Shown: piece after piece, positions 1,973 to 38,106 of the stretch | Numbering within the stretch: position 1 is the stretch's first letter | Layout of the letters: the number at the start of each line of letters is the position of its first letter | Sequence record: NC_011045.1 | Source: Escherichia phage 13a | Reading direction: 5' to 3' (one strand) | Length of the DNA: 38,841 nt | Made by a program: the position numbers and the translations under genes | Notes under the pieces: generated by a model | Told to the model about the DNA's origin: nothing | The model's input: only the letters and a program-made list of their open reading frames with translations | Databases searched by the model: none

Positions 1973-4624
1973 ATGAACACGATTAACATCGCTAAGAACG
2001 ACTTCTCTGACATCGAACTGGCTGCTATCCCGTTCAACACTCTGGCTGACCATTACGGTGAGCGTTTAGCTCGCGAGCAGTTGGCCCTTGAGCACGAGTC
2101 TTACGAGATGGGTGAAGCACGCTTCCGCAAGATGTTTGAGCGTCAACTTAAAGCTGGTGAGGTTGCGGATAACGCTGCCGCCAAGCCTCTCATTACTACC
2201 CTGCTCCCTAAGATGATTGCACGCATCAACGATTGGTTTGAGGAAGTGAAAGCTAAGCGCGGCAAACGCCCGACAGCCTTCCAGTTCCTGCAAGAAATCA
2301 AGCCGGAAGCTGTAGCGTACATCACCATTAAGACCACTCTGGCTTGCCTCACGAGCGTAGACAATACAACCGTTCAGGCTGTAGCAAGTGCAATCGGTCG
2401 AGCTATTGAGGACGAGGCGCGCTTTGGTCGAATCCGTGACCTTGAGGCTAAGCACTTCAAGAAAAACGTTGAGGAACAACTTAACAAGCGCGTAGGGCAC
2501 GTCTACAAGAAAGCATTCATGCAGGTTGTTGAAGCGGACATGCTATCTAAGGGTCTACTGGGCGGTGAGGCGTGGTCTTCGTGGCACAAGGAGGACTCCA
2601 TTCACGTTGGGGTTCGCTGCATTGAAATGCTAATTGAGTCTACCGGAATGGTTAGCTTACACCGCCAAAACGCTGGCGTAGTTGGTCAAGACTCTGAGAC
2701 TATCGAACTAGCACCGGAATACGCTGAGGCTATCGCAACCCGTGCAGGTGCACTGGCTGGTATCTCTCCGATGTTCCAACCTTGCGTAGTTCCTCCTAAG
2801 CCTTGGACCGGTATTACTGGTGGTGGTTATTGGGCTAACGGTCGCCGCCCACTGGCGCTGGTACGTACCCACAGCAAGAAAGCACTGATGCGCTACGAAG
2901 ACGTTTACATGCCAGAGGTTTACAAGGCTATTAACATTGCGCAAAACACCGCATGGAAAATCAATAAGAAAGTCCTAGCGGTCGCCAATGTCATCACCAA
3001 ATGGAAGCACTGCCCTGTAGAGGATATCCCAGCGATTGAACGTGAAGAACTCCCGATGAAACCGGAAGACATCGACACGAATCCTGATGCTCTCACCGCG
3101 TGGAAACGTGCCGCTGCCGCTGTGTACCGTAAAGACAAGGCTCGCAAGTCTCGCCGTATCAGCCTTGAGTTCATGCTTGAGCAAGCCAATAAGTTCGCTA
3201 ACCATAAAGCCATCTGGTTCCCTTACAACATGGACTGGCGCGGTCGTGTTTACGCTGTGTCAATGTTCAACCCGCAAGGTAACGATATGACCAAGGGTCT
3301 GCTGACGCTGGCGAAAGGTAAACCAATCGGTAAGGAAGGTTACTACTGGTTGAAAATCCACGGTGCAAACTGTGCGGGTGTCGATAAGGTTCCATTCCCT
3401 GAGCGCATCAAGTTCATCGAGGACAACCACGAGAACATCATGGCTTGCGCTAAGTCTCCACTGGAGAACACTTGGTGGGCTGAGCAAGATTCTCCATTCT
3501 GCTTCCTCGCGTTCTGCTTTGAGTACGCTGGGGTACAGCACCACGGCCTTAGCTACAACTGCTCTCTTCCGCTGGCGTTCGATGGGTCTTGCTCTGGTAT
3601 TCAGCACTTCTCCGCGATGCTCCTTGATGAGATAGGTGGTCGTGCGGTTAACCTGCTGCCTAGTGAAACCGTTCAGGACATCTACGGGATTGTCGCTAAG
3701 AAAGTCAACGTGATTCTACAAGCAGATGTAATCAACGGGACCGACAACGAAGTAGTTACCGTGACCGATGAGAACACTGGTGAAATCTCTGAGAAAGTCA
3801 AGCTGGGCACTAAGGCGCTGGCTGGTCAATGGTTGGCTTACGGTGTTACTCGCAGCGTGACTAAGCGTTCAGTCATGACGCTGGCTTACGGGTCCAAAGA
3901 GTTTGGCTTCCGTCAACAAGTGCTGGAAGATACCATTCAGCCAGCTATTGATTCCGGTAAAGGTCTGATGTTCACTCAACCGAATCAGGCTGCTGGATAC
4001 ATGGCGAAACTGATTTGGGAAGCTGTGAGCGTGACGGTGGTAGCCGCTGTGGAAGCTATGAACTGGCTCAAGTCTGCTGCTAAGCTGCTGGCTGCTGAGG
4101 TCAAAGATAAGAAGACTGGAGAGATTCTTCGCAAGCGTTGCGCTGTGCATTGGGTGACTCCTGATGGTTTCCCTGTGTGGCAGGAATACAAGAAGCCGAT
4201 TCAGACCCGCTTGAACCTGATGTTCCTCGGTCAGTTCCGTCTACAGCCAACCATTAACACCAACAAGGATAGCGAGATTGACGCGCACAAGCAGGAGTCC
4301 GGCATCGCTCCTAACTTTGTACACAGCCAAGACGGTAGCCACCTGCGTAAAACTGTAGTGTGGGCGCACGAGAAGTACGGAATCGAATCCTTTGCACTGA
4401 TTCACGACTCCTTCGGGACCATTCCTGCCGACGCTGCCAACCTGTTCAAAGCTGTGCGCGAAACTATGGTTGACACCTATGAGTCTTGTGATGTACTGGC
4501 TGACTTCTACGACCAGTTCGCTGACCAGTTGCACGAGTCTCAATTGGATAAAATGCCAGCACTTCCGGCTAAGGGAAACTTGAATCTCCAAGACATCCTT
4601 AAGTCAGACTTCGCGTTCGCGTAA
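1973..4624 (+). CDS. 1: T7-type single-subunit DNA-dependent RNA polymerase (883 aa)
   Basis: 883-aa ORF, MNTINIAKNDFSDIELAAIPFNTLADHYGERLAREQ... near-identical to T7 RNAP. Confidence 0.99.
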   Translation: MNTINIAKNDFSDIELAAIPFNTLADHYGERLAREQLALEHESYEMGEARFRKMFERQLKAGEVADNAAAKPLITTLLPKMIARINDWFEEVKAKRGKRPTAFQFLQEIKPEAVAYITIKTTLACLTSVDNTTVQAVASAIGRAIEDEARFGRIRDLEAKHFKKNVEEQLNKRVGHVYKKAFMQVVEADMLSKGLLGGEAWSSWHKEDSIHVGVRCIEMLIESTGMVSLHRQNAGVVGQDSETIELAPEYAEAIATRAGALAGISPMFQPCVVPPKPWTGITGGGYWANGRRPLALVRTHSKKALMRYEDVYMPEVYKAINIAQNTAWKINKKVLAVANVITKWKHCPVEDIPAIEREELPMKPEDIDTNPDALTAWKRAAAAVYRKDKARKSRRISLEFMLEQANKFANHKAIWFPYNMDWRGRVYAVSMFNPQGNDMTKGLLTLAKGKPIGKEGYYWLKIHGANCAGVDKVPFPERIKFIEDNHENIMACAKSPLENTWWAEQDSPFCFLAFCFEYAGVQHHGLSYNCSLPLAFDGSCSGIQHFSAMLLDEIGGRAVNLLPSETVQDIYGIVAKKVNVILQADVINGTDNEVVTVTDENTGEISEKVKLGTKALAGQWLAYGVTRSVTKRSVMTLAYGSKEFGFRQQVLEDTIQPAIDSGKGLMFTQPNQAAGYMAKLIWEAVSVTVVAAVEAMNWLKSAAKLLAAEVKDKKTGEILRKRCAVHWVTPDGFPVWQEYKKPIQTRLNLMFLGQFRLQPTINTNKDSEIDAHKQESGIAPNFVHSQDGSHLRKTVVWAHEKYGIESFALIHDSFGTIPADAANLFKAVRETMVDTYESCDVLADFYDQFADQLHESQLDKMPALPAKGNLNLQDILKSDFAFA

Positions 4625-12615: not shown

Positions 12616-14574
12616 ATGATCGTTTCTGACATCGAAGCTAACGCCCTCTTAGAGAGCGTCACTAAGTTCCACTGCGGGGTTATCTACGACTACTCCACCG
12701 CTGAGTACGTAAGCTACCGTCCGGGTGACTTCGGTGCGTATCTGGATGCGCTGGAAGCCGAGGTTGCACGAGGCGGTCTTATTGTGTTCCACAACGGTCA
12801 CAAGTATGACGTTCCTGCATTGACAAAACTGGCAAAGCTGCAATTGAACCGAGAGTTCCACCTTCCTCGTGAGAACTGTATCGACACCCTTGTGCTGTCA
12901 CGTTTGATTCATTCCAACCTGAAAGACACCGATATGGGTCTTCTGCGTTCCGGTAAGTTGCCGGGGAAACGCTTTGGGTCTCACGCTTTGGAGGCGTGGG
13001 GTTATCGCTTGGGCGAAATGAAAGGTGAATACAAGGATGACTTTAAGCGTATGCTTGAAGAGCAGGGTGAAGAATATGTTGATGGTATGGAGTGGTGGAA
13101 CTTCAACGAAGAGATGATGGACTATAACGTTCAGGACGTTGTGGTCACTAAAGCTCTCCTTGAGAAGCTACTCTCTGACAAACATTACTTCCCTCCTGAG
13201 ATTGACTTTACGGACGTAGGGTACACTACGTTCTGGTCAGAATCCCTTGAGGCCGTTGACGTTGAACATCGTGCTGCATGGCTGCTCGCTAAGCAAGAGC
13301 GCAATGGGTTCCCGTTTGACACGAAAGCAATCGAAGAGTTGTACGTAGAGTTAGCTGCTCGCCGCTCTGAGTTGCTCCGTAAATTGACCGAAACGTTTGG
13401 CTCATGGTATCAGCCTAAAGGTGGCACCGAAATGTTCTGCCATCCGCGAACAGGTAAGCCACTGCCTAAGTACCCTCGCATTAAGACACCTAAAGTGGGT
13501 GGTATCTTTAAGAAGCCTAAGAACAAGGCACAGCGAGAAGGCCGTGAGCCTTGCGAACTGGACACCCGCGAGTACGTTGCTGGCGCTCCGTATACTCCAG
13601 TGGAGCACGTGGTGTTTAACCCTTCGTCTCGTGACCACATCCAGAAGAAACTCCAAGAGGCTGGATGGGTCCCCACGAAGTACACCGATAAGGGTGCTCC
13701 TGTGGTGGACGATGAGGTACTCGAAGGAGTACGTGTAGATGACCCTGAGAAGCAAGCTGCTATCGACCTCATTAAAGAGTACTTGATGATTCAGAAGCGA
13801 ATCGGACAGTCTGCTGAGGGAGACAAGGCATGGCTTCGTTACGTTGCTGAGGACGGTAAAATTCATGGTTCTGTTAACCCTAATGGAGCAGTTACGGGTC
13901 GTGCGACCCATGCGTTCCCAAACCTTGCGCAAATTCCGGGTGTACGTTCTCCTTATGGAGAGCAGTGTCGCGCTGCTTTTGGCGCTGAGCATCATTTGGA
14001 TGGGATAACTGGTAAGCCTTGGGTTCAGGCAGGTATCGACGCAAGCGGCCTTGAGTTGCGCTGCCTGGCTCACTTCATGGCTCGATTTGATAACGGTGAG
14101 TACGCTCACGAGATTCTTAATGGTGACATCCACACTAAGAACCAGATGGCTGCTGAACTGCCTACCCGCGATAACGCTAAGACGTTCATCTACGGGTTCC
14201 TTTATGGTGCCGGTGATGAGAAGATTGGGCAGATTGTCGGTGCTGGTAAAGAGCGTGGTAAGGAACTCAAGAAGAAATTCCTTGAGAACACCCCTGCGAT
14301 TGCAGCACTCCGTGAGTCTATACAACAGACACTTGTCGAATCCTCTCAGTGGGTAGCTGGTGAGCAACAAGTCAAGTGGAAACGCCGCTGGATTAAAGGT
14401 CTGGATGGTCGTAAGGTCCATGTTCGCAGTCCTCACGCTGCTTTGAATACCCTTCTGCAATCTGCTGGTGCTCTCATCTGCAAACTGTGGATTATCAAGA
14501 CCGAAGAGATGCTCGTAGAGAAAGGCTTGAAGCATGGCTGGGATGGGGACTTTGCGTACATGGCATGGGTGCAT
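12616..14574 (+). CDS. 5: DNA polymerase gene 5, exon 1 (653 codons)
   Basis: [49 protein letters not shown]... near-identical to T7 gp5 through ...DFAYMAWVH; unspliced frame stops 8 codons later at 14596-14598. Confidence 0.95.
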
Positions 14575-15175
14575 AAACTATCTCATTGTGCACATTAAAT
14601 CTGGTGAACTCGGTGAAACCCTTCTGGGGCAATACCGAGCCAAGCCATAGGGAGGATATATGAGAGGCAAGAAGTTAATCCTTGCGACCACAGAGAGTGG
14701 TTGTATCATCCCTACGTCACACAAACTTAATGCTGATGGTTATTTCCGAAAGAAGACGAACGGTGTCCTAGAGATGTATCACAGGACAGTCTGGAAGGAA
14801 CACTACGGAGATATACCAGAAGGGTATGAAGTAGACCACAAGTGTAGGAACAGGGCGTGCTGTAACGTAGAGCACCTCCAGTTACTAGAAGGTTCTGAGC
14901 ATACAGTCAAGACAAACAGGGAACGCTACGCTGACCGTAAAGAGTCCGCGAAGGAATACTGGTTGGAGACTGGATGTACAGGAACACACTTAGGTGAGAA
15001 GTTTGGTGTAACGTTCTCTGCAGCTTGTAAGTGGATTAGAGAGTGGAAGGCGTAGAGACTATCCGAAAGGAGTAGGGCCGAGGGTGAGATTCCCTCGTTA
15101 CCCGAAGCGCCAGACAGTCAACTCAAAGGCTGATGATATAGTCCGACACTCCTAGTAATAGGAGAATACAGAAAG
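14575..15175 (+). mobile_element. Group I self-splicing intron in DNA polymerase gene (601 nt)
   Basis: Exon 1 ends in U, intron ends in G; internal guide GUGCAC (14588-14593) pairs with exon GUGCAU (14569-14574); R/S-like core gacta (15057-15061) / gatatagtcc (15135-15144); P9-like hairpin 15149-15164; joined exons restore full 704-aa DNAP. Confidence 0.85.
14660..15055 (+). CDS. Intron-encoded HNH homing endonuclease (131 aa)
   Basis: SD agggagg before ATG; HNH motif YEVDHKCRNRACCNVEHLQLLEGSEHTVKTN; paralogous to the 7.7 and post-19 HNH ORFs. Confidence 0.85.
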   Translation: MRGKKLILATTESGCIIPTSHKLNADGYFRKKTNGVLEMYHRTVWKEHYGDIPEGYEVDHKCRNRACCNVEHLQLLEGSEHTVKTNRERYADRKESAKEYWLETGCTGTHLGEKFGVTFSAACKWIREWKA

Positions 15176-15331
15176 GATGAGATTCAAGTAGGTTGCCGTA
15201 CCGAAGAGATTGCTCAGGTTGTAATTGAGACCGCACAAGAGGCAATGCGCTGGGTTGGAGACCACTGGAACTTCCGGTGTCTGCTGGATACCGAAGGTAA
15301 GATGGGTCCGAATTGGGCCGTATGTCACTGA
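15176..15331 (+). CDS. 5: DNA polymerase gene 5, exon 2 (51 codons + stop)
   Basis: DEIQVGCRTEEIAQVVIETAQEAMRWVGDHWNFRCLLDTEGKMGPNWAVCH matches T7 gp5 C-terminus. Confidence 0.9.
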   Translation, partial: DEIQVGCRTEEIAQVVIETAQEAMRWVGDHWNFRCLLDTEGKMGPNWAVCH

Positions 15332-15350
15332 TTCTATAGGAGAAATTATT

Positions 15351-15650
15351 ATGGCTATGACCAAGAAATTTAAAGTGTCCTTCGACGTTACCGCAAAGAT
15401 GCCGTCTGACGTTCAGGCAATCTTAGAGAAAGACATGCTGCATCTATGTAAGCAGGTTGGCTCCGGTGAGATTGTCCCCAATGGTAAACAGAAGGAAATG
15501 ATTGTCCAGTTCCTGACACACGGTATGGAAGGCTTGATGGCATTCGTAGTACGTACATCATTCCGTGAGGCCATCAAGGACATGCACGAAGAGTATTCCG
15601 ATAAGGACTCCTTCAAACTATCTCCTGCAACTGTACGGGAGGTGTTCTGA
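15351..15650 (+). CDS. 5.5: gp5.5 H-NS-binding protein (99 aa)
   Basis: MAMTKKFKVSFDVTAKMPSDVQAILEKDMLHLCKQVGSGEIVPNGKQKEM... near-identical to T7 gp5.5. Confidence 0.93.
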   Translation: MAMTKKFKVSFDVTAKMPSDVQAILEKDMLHLCKQVGSGEIVPNGKQKEMIVQFLTHGMEGLMAFVVRTSFREAIKDMHEEYSDKDSFKLSPATVREVF

Positions 15651-16017: not shown

Positions 16018-16906
16018 CCTTAAACAATTCTACGAGTTACGTGAAGGCTATAACGACAAAGGTATCCTTGTGATGGATGGCGACTGGCTGGTCTTCCAAG
16101 CGATGAGTGCTGCTGAGTTTGATGCCTCATGGGAGGAAGAGATCTGGCACCGCTGCTGTGACCACGCTAAAGCCCGTCAGATTCTTGAGGATTCCATCAA
16201 GTCCTACGAGACCCGTAAGAAGGCTTGGGTAGGTGCTCCGATTGTCCTTGCGTTCACCGATAGCGTTAACTGGCGTAAAGAACTGGTTGACCCGAACTAT
16301 AAGGCTAACCGTAAGGCCACTAAGAAACCTGTAGGTTACTTTGAGTTCCTTGATGCTCTCTTTGAGCGCGAAGAGTTCTATTGCATCCGTGAGCCTATGC
16401 TTGAGGGTGATGACGTTATGGGAGTTATTGCTTCCAATCCGTCTGCATTCGGTGCTCGTAAGGCTGTAATCATCTCGTGCGATAAGGACTTTAAGACCAT
16501 ACCTAACTGTGATTTCCTGTGGTGTACCACTGGTAACATCCTGACTCAGACCGAAGAGTCCGCTGACTGGTGGCACCTCTTCCAGACAATCAAGGGTGAC
16601 ATCACCGATGGTTACTCAGGGATTGCCGGATGGGGCGATACTGCCGAGGACTTCTTGAATAACCCATTCATTACCGAGCCTAAAACGTCTGTGCTTAAGT
16701 CTGGAAAGAACAAAGGCCAAGAGGTTACTAAGTGGGTTAAGCGTGACCCTGAGCCACATGAGACGCTTTGGGACTGCATTAAGTCCATCGGTGCGAAGGC
16801 TGGTATGACCGAAGAGGATATTATCAAGCAGGGCCAGATGGCTCGCATCCTCCGGTTCAACGAGTATAACTTTATTGACAAGGAGATTTACCTGTGGAGA
16901 CCGTAG
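16004..16906 (+). CDS. 6: 5'-3' exonuclease gp6 (300 aa)
   Basis: MALLDLKQFYELREGYNDKGILVMDGDWLVFQAMSAAEFD... near-identical to T7 gp6. Confidence 0.97.
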   Translation: MALLDLKQFYELREGYNDKGILVMDGDWLVFQAMSAAEFDASWEEEIWHRCCDHAKARQILEDSIKSYETRKKAWVGAPIVLAFTDSVNWRKELVDPNYKANRKATKKPVGYFEFLDALFEREEFYCIREPMLEGDDVMGVIASNPSAFGARKAVIISCDKDFKTIPNCDFLWCTTGNILTQTEESADWWHLFQTIKGDITDGYSGIAGWGDTAEDFLNNPFITEPKTSVLKSGKNKGQEVTKWVKRDPEPHETLWDCIKSIGAKAGMTEEDIIKQGQMARILRFNEYNFIDKEIYLWRP

Positions 16907-18034: not shown

Positions 18035-18313
18035 ATGGGTAAGAAAGTTAAGAAGGCCGTGAAGAAAGTCACTAAGTCCGTTAAGAAAGTCGTCAATGGA
18101 GTGGCTGGCGGTCTGGCTGGTCTGGCTGGTGGCGCTGGTGAAGCACAGGTGGTGGAAGCACCACAAGCTGCCGCACAGATTGTTGACGTACCTGAGAAAG
18201 AGGTTTCCACTGAGGACGAAGCACAGACCGAAAGCGGACGTAAGAAAGCTCGTGCTGGCGGTAAGAAGTCCTTGAGCGTTGCCCGTAGCTCTGGCGGGGG
18301 TATAAATATATGA
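18035..18313 (+). CDS. 7.3: gp7.3 tail/virion assembly protein (92 aa)
   Basis: MGKKVKKAVKKVTKSVKKVVNGVAGGLAGLAGGAGEAQ... T7 gp7.3-like. Confidence 0.88.
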   Translation: MGKKVKKAVKKVTKSVKKVVNGVAGGLAGLAGGAGEAQVVEAPQAAAQIVDVPEKEVSTEDEAQTESGRKKARAGGKKSLSVARSSGGGINI

Positions 18314-18705
18314 CAGATTGTATCGAGTGGACTGGCTACCTCACAAAAGATGGGTACGGCGAAACTCGACTGAATGGTGTCAAATTTAGGGTTCATCGTC
18401 TAGAATGGATTAAACAAAGAGGCCCAATACCTGAAGGTCTAGTTGTTCGCCATAAGTGCGATAACCCTAAATGTTACAATATCGAACACCTTGAGCTAGG
18501 AACAACTCAGGATAACACTAGAGATAGGGTCTTGAGGAATAGAAGCGCAAAGGGAGTACGTAATGGAAATTCCAAATTAACACCTGATGTCGTTCTGGCA
18601 ATACGCGCAAGTAGTAAGACCCACAAGCTGATAGCCGAAGAGTTCGGTGTATCCAAATCAGTTGTGACACAGATACGAGCACGTAAGACATGGAGGCATA
18701 TCTAA
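18310..18705 (+). CDS. 7.7: HNH endonuclease gp7.7 (131 aa)
   Basis: HRLEWIKQRGPIPEGLVVRHKCDNPKCYNIEHLELGTTQDN HNH motif; T7 gene 7.7 position. Confidence 0.9.
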   Translation: MTDCIEWTGYLTKDGYGETRLNGVKFRVHRLEWIKQRGPIPEGLVVRHKCDNPKCYNIEHLELGTTQDNTRDRVLRNRSAKGVRNGNSKLTPDVVLAIRASSKTHKLIAEEFGVSKSVVTQIRARKTWRHI

Positions 18706-35847: not shown

Positions 35848-37608
35848 GTGTCTACTCAATCCAATCGTAATGCGCTCGTAGTGGCGCAACTGAAAGGAGA
35901 CTTCGTGGCGTTCCTGTTCGTCTTATGGAAGGCGTTAAACCTTCCGGTGCCCACTAAGTGCCAAATAGATATGGCTAAGGTGCTTGCGAATGGAGACAAC
36001 AAGAAGTTCATCTTACAGGCTTTCCGTGGTATCGGTAAGTCGTTCATCACGTGTGCGTTCGTTGTGTGGTCCTTATGGAGAGACCCTCAGTTGAAGATAC
36101 TTATTGTATCAGCCTCTAAGGAACGTGCAGACGCTAACTCCATTTTCATCAAGAACATCATTGACCTGCTACCGTTTCTCAGTGAGTTGAAGCCAAGACC
36201 CGGACAGCGTGACTCTGTAATTAGTTTCGACGTAGGTCCAGCTAAGCCTGACCACTCTCCTAGTGTAAAATCAGTAGGTATCACTGGTCAGTTAACAGGT
36301 AGCCGTGCTGACATTATCATTGCGGATGACGTTGAGATTCCGTCTAACAGTGCTACTATGGGTGCCCGTGAGAAGCTATGGACTCTCGTTCAGGAGTTCG
36401 CTGCGTTGCTTAAACCGCTGCCTTCCTCTCGTGTTATCTATCTTGGCACACCTCAGACTGAGATGACTCTCTATAAGGAACTTGAGGATAACCGTGGGTA
36501 TACCACTATCATCTGGCCTGCTCTGTATCCAAGGACGCGTGAAGAGAACCTATATTACTCACAGCGACTTGCTCCTATGCTGCGTGCTGAGTACGATGAG
36601 AACCCTGAGGCACTCGCTGGGACTCCAACAGACCCTGTGCGCTTCGACCGTGATGACCTCCGTGAACGTGAGTTGGAATACGGTAAGGCTGGCTTCACGC
36701 TACAGTTCATGCTTAACCCGAACCTGAGTGATGCCGAGAAGTACCCTCTGAGGCTCCGTGACGCTATCGTAGCGGCCTTAGACTTAGAGAAGGCACCAAT
36801 GCACTACCAGTGGCTTCCGAACCGTCAGAACATCATTGAGGACCTTCCTAACGTTGGCCTTAAGGGTGATGACCTTCATACGTACCATGATTGCTCCAAC
36901 AACTCTGGTCAGTACCAACAGAAGATTCTGGTCATTGACCCTAGTGGTCGCGGTAAGGACGAAACAGGTTACGCTGTGCTGTACACCCTGAACGGTTATA
37001 TCTACCTTATGGAAGCTGGAGGTTTCCGTGATGGTTACTCTGATAAGACCCTTGAGTTGCTCGCTAAGAAGGCTAAGCAGTGGGGAGTCCAGACGGTTGT
37101 CTATGAGAGTAACTTCGGTGACGGTATGTTTGGTAAGGTGTTCAGTCCTATCCTTCTAAAACACCACAACTGTGCGATGGAAGAGATTCGTGCTCGTGGT
37201 ATGAAGGAGATGCGTATTTGTGATACCCTTGAGCCAGTCATGCAGACTCACCGCCTTGTCATTCGTGATGAGGTCATTAGGGCCGACTACCAGTCCGCTC
37301 GTGATGTAGATGGTAAGCATGACGTTAAGTATTCACTGTTCTACCAGATGACCCGCATCACTCGTGAGAAAGGCGCTCTGGCTCATGATGACCGATTAGA
37401 TGCCCTTGCGTTAGGCATTGAGTATCTCCGTGAGTCCATGCAGTTGGATTCCGTTAAGGTCGAAGGTGAAGTGCTTGCTGACTTCCTTGAGGAGCACATG
37501 ATGCGTCCTACAGTAGCTGCTACTCATATCATTGAGATGTCTGTGGGAGGAGTTGATGTGTACTCTGAGGACGATGAAGGCTACGGTACGTCTTTCATTG
37601 AGTGGTGA
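35848..37608 (+). CDS. 19: Terminase large subunit gp19 (586 aa)
   Basis: GTG start (track); [54 protein letters not shown]... near-identical to T7 gp19. Confidence 0.97.
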
Positions 37609-37644: not shown

Positions 37645-38106
37645 ATGATAAGTAAGAAGAAGTATACAGTTGATAAGGATACTGGCTGCTGGAACTTTAA
37701 GGGATGTAAGACGAAGACTGGTTATGGTCGTCTCCGTGTAAATGGAGTCCATTGGATGGCCCACAGGTATTCCCTGAGTTGTCACCTAGGCAGACCGATA
37801 GCTGATGGAATGGTTGTGATGCACCTATGTGATAATCCGTCATGTGTTAACCCTGAGCATCTTAAAGAAGGGACTCAGAAGGAGAATATGGATGACTGTA
37901 AGGCCAAAGGTAGGATGTACAGGCCGGGTGCCACAGGAAAACAAAAGACCAGTACGGCGAAGGTTGCCTATCACGATGACTGGCGTAAAGACCAAGTTAT
38001 TCGCTATCATGTACGTTGGAAATGGAAGCCATCTCGAATTGCTGAGAAGATGAGGCTATCTATAACGTGGGTTAAGAGGGTCTTAGAGGAGTACGTAAGT
38101 CTTTGA
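37645..38106 (+). CDS. Free-standing HNH homing endonuclease (153 aa), inserted between gene 19 and phiOR
   Basis: ATG with taaggaggt SD; HNH motif HWMAHRYSLSCHLGRPIADGMVVMHLCDNPSCVNPEHLKEGTQKEN; rare-codon rich; no counterpart at this position in T7 as recalled. Confidence 0.85.
   Translation: MISKKKYTVDKDTGCWNFKGCKTKTGYGRLRVNGVHWMAHRYSLSCHLGRPIADGMVVMHLCDNPSCVNPEHLKEGTQKENMDDCKAKGRMYRPGATGKQKTSTAKVAYHDDWRKDQVIRYHVRWKWKPSRIAEKMRLSITWVKRVLEEYVSL

Follow-up and report, generated by a model that had tools for sequence, protein, structure and literature searches.

The 19-nucleotide spacer between gene 5 and gene 5.5 of Escherichia phage 13a is an ordinary ribosome-binding spacer of gene 5.5, and it represents the unoccupied, and probably ancestral, form of an insertion slot that is polymorphic among T7-like phages. 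The DNA polymerase gene preceding this slot (i.e. gene 5) is split by a group I intron that contains an HNH endonuclease gene, and the region as a whole is, with high confidence, best explained by a default empty slot combined with a known mobile intron of the I-TslI type. In the 13a region, the already known I-TslI intron system is found in one more genome, beside an ordinary unoccupied slot. All coordinates given for 13a refer to the window, that is, the whole 38,841-nucleotide stretch of NC_011045.1 that was analysed.

Direct reading of the sequence showed that the second exon of gene 5 ends in GCC GTA TGT CAC TGA, with the stop codon at 15329-15331, and that gene 5.5 starts with the ATG at 15351-15353 (MAMTKKFKVSFDV...), so that the intervening spacer (15332..15350, plus strand; TTCTATAGGAGAAATTATT) measures 19 nt, as had been proposed in the original prediction. 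Gene 5.5 (15351..15650, plus strand), identified from the ORF list, its sequence and the T7 annotation, encodes a 99-aa H-NS-binding protein with 95% identity to T7 gp5.5. Its Shine-Dalgarno sequence, AGGAG, is located within the spacer at 15338-15342, 8 nt before the ATG. According to the ORF list, no ORF of at least 30 aa is located wholly between gene 5 and gene 5.5 on either strand. Furthermore, neither a T7-type promoter nor a terminator-like site was observed within 15332-15350; ten promoter matches were obtained genome-wide, none of which is near 15332. Because of the similarity of CTATAGGAGA to the T7 promoter at its 3' end, the spacer was also considered as a hidden phage promoter; this candidate was rejected because it falls outside the ten promoter matches. 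At another locus (L016, 4829-4856), the slot reads TAATACGACTCACTAAAGGAGG, which resembles a phage RNA polymerase promoter and immediately follows the stop codon of the polymerase gene; 13a has no equivalent.

In 11 other loci (L006, L008, L010, L012, L013, L014, L015, L018, L022, L024 and L073), the stop codon of the polymerase gene is likewise followed by the exact 19-mer; all but one of these loci are intronless, the exception being L012. The content of the slot was surveyed across 80 loci from IMG/VR that encode proteins closely related to the C-terminal part of the polymerase, for which the exon ends, gene 5.5 and the slot content were mapped. The slot was found to be empty (15-24 nt) in 63/80 loci, to contain a T7-type nuclease gene in 4/80 and a T3-type HNH gene in 2/80, and to be occupied in 10/80 by other small ORFs of at least four unrelated kinds with no confident Pfam match, while the locus was truncated in 1/80. 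These small ORFs (53-108 aa) were assigned to families represented by L011/L023/L082/L084, L026/L054/L080, L053 and L074/L079. The gene 5/gene 5.5 slot is a general insertion hot spot rather than a nuclease-specific one.

Loci with an empty slot were nearly all intronless, the gene 5 intron being present in 1 of the 80 sampled loci (L012). As an empty slot is common among intronless loci, in addition to the identical 19-mer, it constitutes the default state and not the footprint of an HNH gene that relocated into the intron; judging from this comparison, it is probably also the ancestral state. The original prediction had placed the HNH gene in the intron 'instead' of in the slot. Both of these states were indeed observed, but the implied causal connection did not hold, since 63 of the 80 mostly intronless loci carry an empty slot.

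The gene order given for T7 in the original prediction was correct: in the T7 sequence (V01146), gene 5.3 (16483-16839) lies between the end of gene 5 at 16467 and the start of gene 5.5 at 16851. The T7 cassette in the slot represents a clean 364-nt insertion, whose flanks (TAC and TATAGGAGAAATTATT), when joined, correspond to the exact 19-nt spacer of phage AV103. Considering the slot contents described above, 'gene 5.3' is a positional label applied to unrelated cassettes and not a single family, and because it is positional, transfer of annotation or function by this name is wrong. In the K1F annotation, the intron ORF is named '5.3' and exon 2 is named '5.4'.

Gene 5, which encodes a T7-type DNA polymerase, consists of two exons on the plus strand. 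Exon 1 (12616..14574), delineated by means of the ORF list, alignment to T7 and T3 gene 5 and tblastn-based mapping, comprises 653 codons ending in ...AYMAWVH, while exon 2 (15176..15331), aligned to T7, T3 and AV103, comprises 51 codons and the TGA stop codon (DEIQVGCRTEE...PNWAVCH*). The intervening group I intron (14575..15175, plus strand), identified using RF00028 and the T7/T3 gene 5 alignment, is 601 nt in length and ends with the terminal G at 15175. The exon 1 boundary follows the CAT at 14572-14574, placing the intron, relative to T7, between codons His653 (CAT) and Asp654 (GAT); removal of 14575-15175 yields 653 + 51 = 704 codons that are colinear with T7 gene 5; the boundary is unambiguous.

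The Rfam match to RF00028 (14565-15165) covers model positions 1-253 with an E-value of 1.4e-7 and 37.9 bits, which is below the gathering score of 50. According to the structure line of the Rfam alignment, the P1 helix (14569..14593, plus strand) is formed by pairing of the exon sequence GUGCAU (14569-14574) with the internal guide sequence UUGUGCAC (14586-14593), and the splice-site U (14574) is part of a U-G pair. In all intron-bearing alleles, codon 652 is GTG, in agreement with the guide sequence, as compared with a single tabulated intronless locus. The exon 1 reading frame continues for seven codons into the intron (KLSHCAH, followed by a stop; 14575-14598), producing a 660-aa ORF. In relatives (e.g. 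AV103 and L002), the split gene is publicly annotated as two 'DNA polymerase' CDSs and a hypothetical protein, a common mis-annotation of the split polymerase.

The original prediction that the HNH gene resides within this intron was confirmed. The intron ORF (14660..15055, plus strand) encodes a 131-aa HNH homing endonuclease of the I-TslI type, as assigned by its match to PF13392 (HNH_3; E 6.6e-17, 61.3 bits, compared with a cut-off of 24.8) and by protein comparison. It is preceded by a Shine-Dalgarno sequence (GGAGG, 14649-14653) and occupies the loop that connects the P6 region to the P3 3' strand, as a large insertion between RF00028 positions 148 and 149. The deduced protein exactly matches ACF15938.1 (HNH endonuclease, Escherichia phage 13a) and exhibits 87% identity to I-TslI of phage PhiI (AAV53690), with 17 amino-acid differences, the two proteins belonging to a common 90% cluster. 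Alignment of the intron ORF with its homologues revealed that D59-H60, N69, H72, H81, N86 and Cys62/67/68 are invariant, while the C-terminal ~37 residues produced weak helix-turn-helix matches. When the intron ORF was compared with the sequences in the PDB, no meaningful match was obtained.

The polymerase introns of phages PhiI and W31 have been tabulated as 601 nt in length with a 131-aa ORF, I-TslI (PMC1995217), and papers citing the original work report self-splicing and cleavage of intronless alleles for this intron (PMC3428280, PMC8845596). Host gene, intron length and ORF length are all equal in 13a, and no difference in kind was observed, 13a being another host genome. The tabulated sizes and the protein identity show that the 13a intron with its HNH ORF is the known PhiI/W31 (I-TslI) mobile element, as far as sequence comparison allows this to be judged. 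A search for literature on phage 13a together with the intron returned nothing. The association of homing endonuclease genes with group I introns is textbook knowledge and has already been published for PhiI, W31 and T3.

Among 13a, AV103 and HZP2, the intron is 97-99% identical, compared with 86-97% for the flanking exons, and it is distributed among members of Teseptimavirus, Berlinvirus and Kayfunavirus (K1F) and among Klebsiella, Salmonella and Yersinia phages. Such a patchy distribution, together with an intron that is better conserved than its flanks, is a sequence signature of horizontal spread. When the two intron halves were joined and used as a query, no ORF-less copy was detected, as both halves were separated by 593-602 nt in 39 of the 39 database records that contain them, meaning that every one of these copies carries the ORF. 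In Aeromonas phage PT2 (L088, 1448-3275), the polymerase annotation stops at 1448, i.e. ~1050 nt ahead of the match to the intron (2501-3119); two places in this phage match the intron query, and its polymerase gene may hold more than one intron.

The original prediction had also linked the intron ORF to the free-standing gene 5.3. Alignment of the intron ORF with T7 and T3 gp5.3, and of the surrounding region with both phages, established homology to the T3 protein as well as the anatomy of the slot, but not the expected homology to the T7 protein. T3 gp5.3 (101 aa) matches PF13392 (E 4.6e-19) and shares 48% identity with the intron ORF over 95 aa (E 1e-31); for gp5.3 of phage LL2, the comparison with the intron ORF yielded an E-value of 2e-32. 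T3-type HNH genes were found in the slot of T3, phiYeO3-12, LL2 and an IMG/VR contig (L051), and the free-standing forms exhibit 44-55% identity to the intron ORF. The T3-type proteins (100-122 aa) contain a six-residue insertion and terminate at a point corresponding to about residue 95-100 of the intron enzyme, lacking its C-terminal ~37 residues, and specificity identical to that of the intron enzyme is therefore not self-evident. Gene 5.3 of T3 and phiYeO3-12 shares with the intron ORF the HNH_3 core, all of the HNH and Cys residues and a similar ribosome-binding site and start context (GGAGGATATATGAGAGGC in the intron ORF, GGAGGTATTATGGGAGGC in T3-type gp5.3); it differs in its location outside gene 5, within the slot that has no occupant in 13a, and in that its carriers are intronless.

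Conversely, T7 gene 5.3 corresponds to the 13a spacer in position and shares the positional name, but encodes a protein with a PD-(D/E)XK fold that is unrelated to the HNH intron ORF of 13a. T7 gp5.3 (118 aa) matches PF11645 (PD-(D/E)XK endonuclease family; E 1.1e-10), as opposed to PF13392, and displays no similarity to the intron ORF (BLASTP E 9). Its best solved relative is 2OST (E 0.013), which we take to be I-Ssp6803I. No homologue of T7-type gp5.3 was found anywhere in the 13a window.

Published work, as presented in citing papers (PMC3984707, PMC10055350 and PMC2790892), describes a free-standing endonuclease of T3/T7-like phages whose target is the insertion site of the intron and which is thereby 'pre-adapted' to serve as intron ORF. 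The statement in the original prediction that free-standing and intronic enzymes share a single target agrees with this model, as well as with the breakpoint footprints described here, but not by way of T7 gp5.3. Comparison of gene 5 of T3 and T7 revealed 5.1% mismatches in the 1700 nt preceding the insertion site (only three of them between -200 and -7), as opposed to 23.7% mismatches over the 156 nt downstream, the switch being located at -6 to -1. In T3 (L003, 2497-2658, corresponding to 14569-14574 and 15176-15331 of the window), identity to T7 gene 5 is ~95-99% and then ~76% to the end of the gene; the divergent patch spans gene 5.3 and most of gene 5.5, with ~95% identity being regained from gene 5.7. 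Based on these alignments, the patch resembles a gene-conversion tract beginning at the insertion site.

A second breakpoint was observed in another, independent T3-type HNH carrier with a Klebsiella-phage-like polymerase background (L051, IMG/VR contig 2974644610, 4595-4831): its identity to the nearest relative amounts to 97.2% in the 600 nt preceding the insertion site and to 77% in the sequence that follows, with the break near -10. Furthermore, an A at -6, which changes Val to Ile at codon 652, was present in five of five T3-type carriers, compared with two other tabulated loci. Such T3-type footprints are those that would be expected of co-conversion and self-immunity if the slot HNH enzyme initiates repair at the insertion site. 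The statements of the citing papers, together with the breakpoints in T3 and L051, support the notion that both HNH enzymes would act at the insertion site. The homing targets of free-standing nucleases may thus be readable from comparative sequence alone, an approach that could be applied to T7 gp5.3.

When carriers of T7-type gene 5.3 were inspected for a breakpoint at the intron insertion site, none was found. In these carriers, i.e. T7 (L001/L009), L005, L035 and L064, which represent three polymerase backgrounds, gene 5 ends in AICH (with ATT for Ile), as compared with AVCH or other endings in ~75 non-carriers, including 13a (AVCH; 15317-15328). The T7-type proteins of different carriers share only 77-78% identity. 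The missing breakpoint and the shared AICH ending suggest that the target of T7 gp5.3, unlike that of the T3-type enzyme, is the very end of gene 5, adjoining the cassette, and the ATT polymorphism may be a co-converted or self-immunity mark of this target. As a tentative and rather speculative joint reading, the gene 5/gene 5.5 junction could serve as a common landing pad for two or more unrelated homing nucleases whose targets differ but fall within the terminal 160 nt of gene 5, of which the T3-type HNH enzyme would target the intron site and T7 gp5.3 (I-Ssp6803I-like) the last ~10 nt of gene 5, with the short HNH protein perhaps representing an escaped, truncated intron endonuclease.

As for cleavage, splicing and homing, which we infer or draw from the literature, the following course of events may be proposed beside the anatomy, homologies, distribution and breakpoints observed here. 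During mixed infection, the intron enzyme would nick or cut, beside the insertion site, those gene 5 alleles that lack the intron; repair would then copy the intron, plus a few flanking exon bases, into the intronless allele. The free-standing T3-type enzyme would likewise act at the intron insertion site, dragging in the last 153 nt of gene 5 along with its own gene. As the intron splits the target of the T3-type enzyme, the T3-type cassette would be unable to enter an intron-bearing genome, and this would account for the two forms not having been found together. At E<=1e-15, HNH matches were obtained in 187 phage records, each at one place, and the intron form and the slot form co-occurred in 0/187 records, a result of small statistical weight as both states are rare. 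The proposed scheme resembles collaborative homing by F-CphI (psbA intron, cyanophage S-PM2; PMC6083498) and trans homing by T4 MobE (nrdB intron; PMC2790892) in that a nuclease gene adjoins an intron-bearing gene and its product acts at or near the site of intron insertion. It differs from these systems in that the 13a endonuclease is encoded inside the intron and the adjacent slot lacks a nuclease gene, and a collaborative homing pair is consequently not present in 13a.

An alternative origin of the 13a arrangement, namely that an ancestral HNH gene of the slot jumped into the polymerase intron within the 13a lineage and thereby vacated the slot, would be in line with the homology between the intron ORF and T3-type gp5.3, which extends from the first codons and includes the similar ribosome-binding site and start context, and a move of this kind is proposed in the model outlined in PMC3984707. 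Such a relocation is nevertheless highly improbable for 13a: the spacer is identical in ten intronless, nuclease-less relatives and bears no scar, the ORF was already present in 39/39 database copies of the intron, and the intron with its ORF, being 97-99% identical across genera, came as a finished unit. The free-standing forms, by comparison, share no more than 44-55% identity with the intron ORF and are devoid of the C-terminal domain, indicating that any relocation was ancient and did not take place in this lineage. We also consider it improbable that 13a, independently of the intron, lost a T7-type PD-(D/E)XK cassette by recombination between the AGGAG-containing flanks. From gene 5 to gene 6, 13a and T7 share ~95% identity, and the T7 cassette lies between TAC-AGGAGG and TAT-AGGAGA, two short repeats through which it could be lost precisely. 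However, the slot is also empty in the other closest sampled relatives of T7 (L006, L008, L010, L013, L014, L015 and L073), 13a possesses AVCH and not the carrier-linked AICH (ATT), and the 77-78% identity among the T7-type proteins looks like that of a gained mobile cassette.

A further alternative concerns the direction of exchange between the intron and the slot, as T3-type gene 5.3 might be an escaped and C-terminally truncated copy of the intron endonuclease and not its pre-adapted precursor. Full-length homologues (97-100% coverage, 52-62% identity) are encoded in or beside the DNA polymerase genes of unrelated phages, i.e. 76-kb E. coli, Aeromonas, Vibrio, Edwardsiella and Klebsiella phages, one of them being annotated within a putative intron and several adjoining a 5' intron segment, whereas the short free-standing form occurs exclusively in T3-like slots. 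This distribution leaves escape with truncation as open as the published precursor model, and homing endonuclease gene turnover is raised as an alternative origin of such arrangements in PMC10055350. The published experimental work argued for the opposite direction, and the question relates to the history of the family and not to the nature of the 19-nt spacer; an escape of this kind is regarded as possible, although rather unlikely. If true, it would reverse the textbook direction of 'pre-adaptation'. For 13a itself, the preferred reading continues to be the default empty slot beside the known I-TslI-type intron. The breakpoints and the T7 gp5.3 observations are the only parts that might merit more work, the remainder being of little consequence for the 13a genome.

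Records containing the full-length homologues include SU7, ECBP2, MQM1, Vp_R1, CHOED and RCIP0053. Within the 13a window, two further HNH_3 genes were identified on the plus strand, at 18310-18705 (PF13392, E 3.8e-16), just before a 541-aa ORF that starts at 18690, and at 37645-38106 (PF13392, E 3e-9), just after a 586-aa ORF that ends at 37608 and near the right end of the genome. Their products are 35-40% identical to the intron ORF. In T7, matches to the intron ORF fall in gene 7.7.
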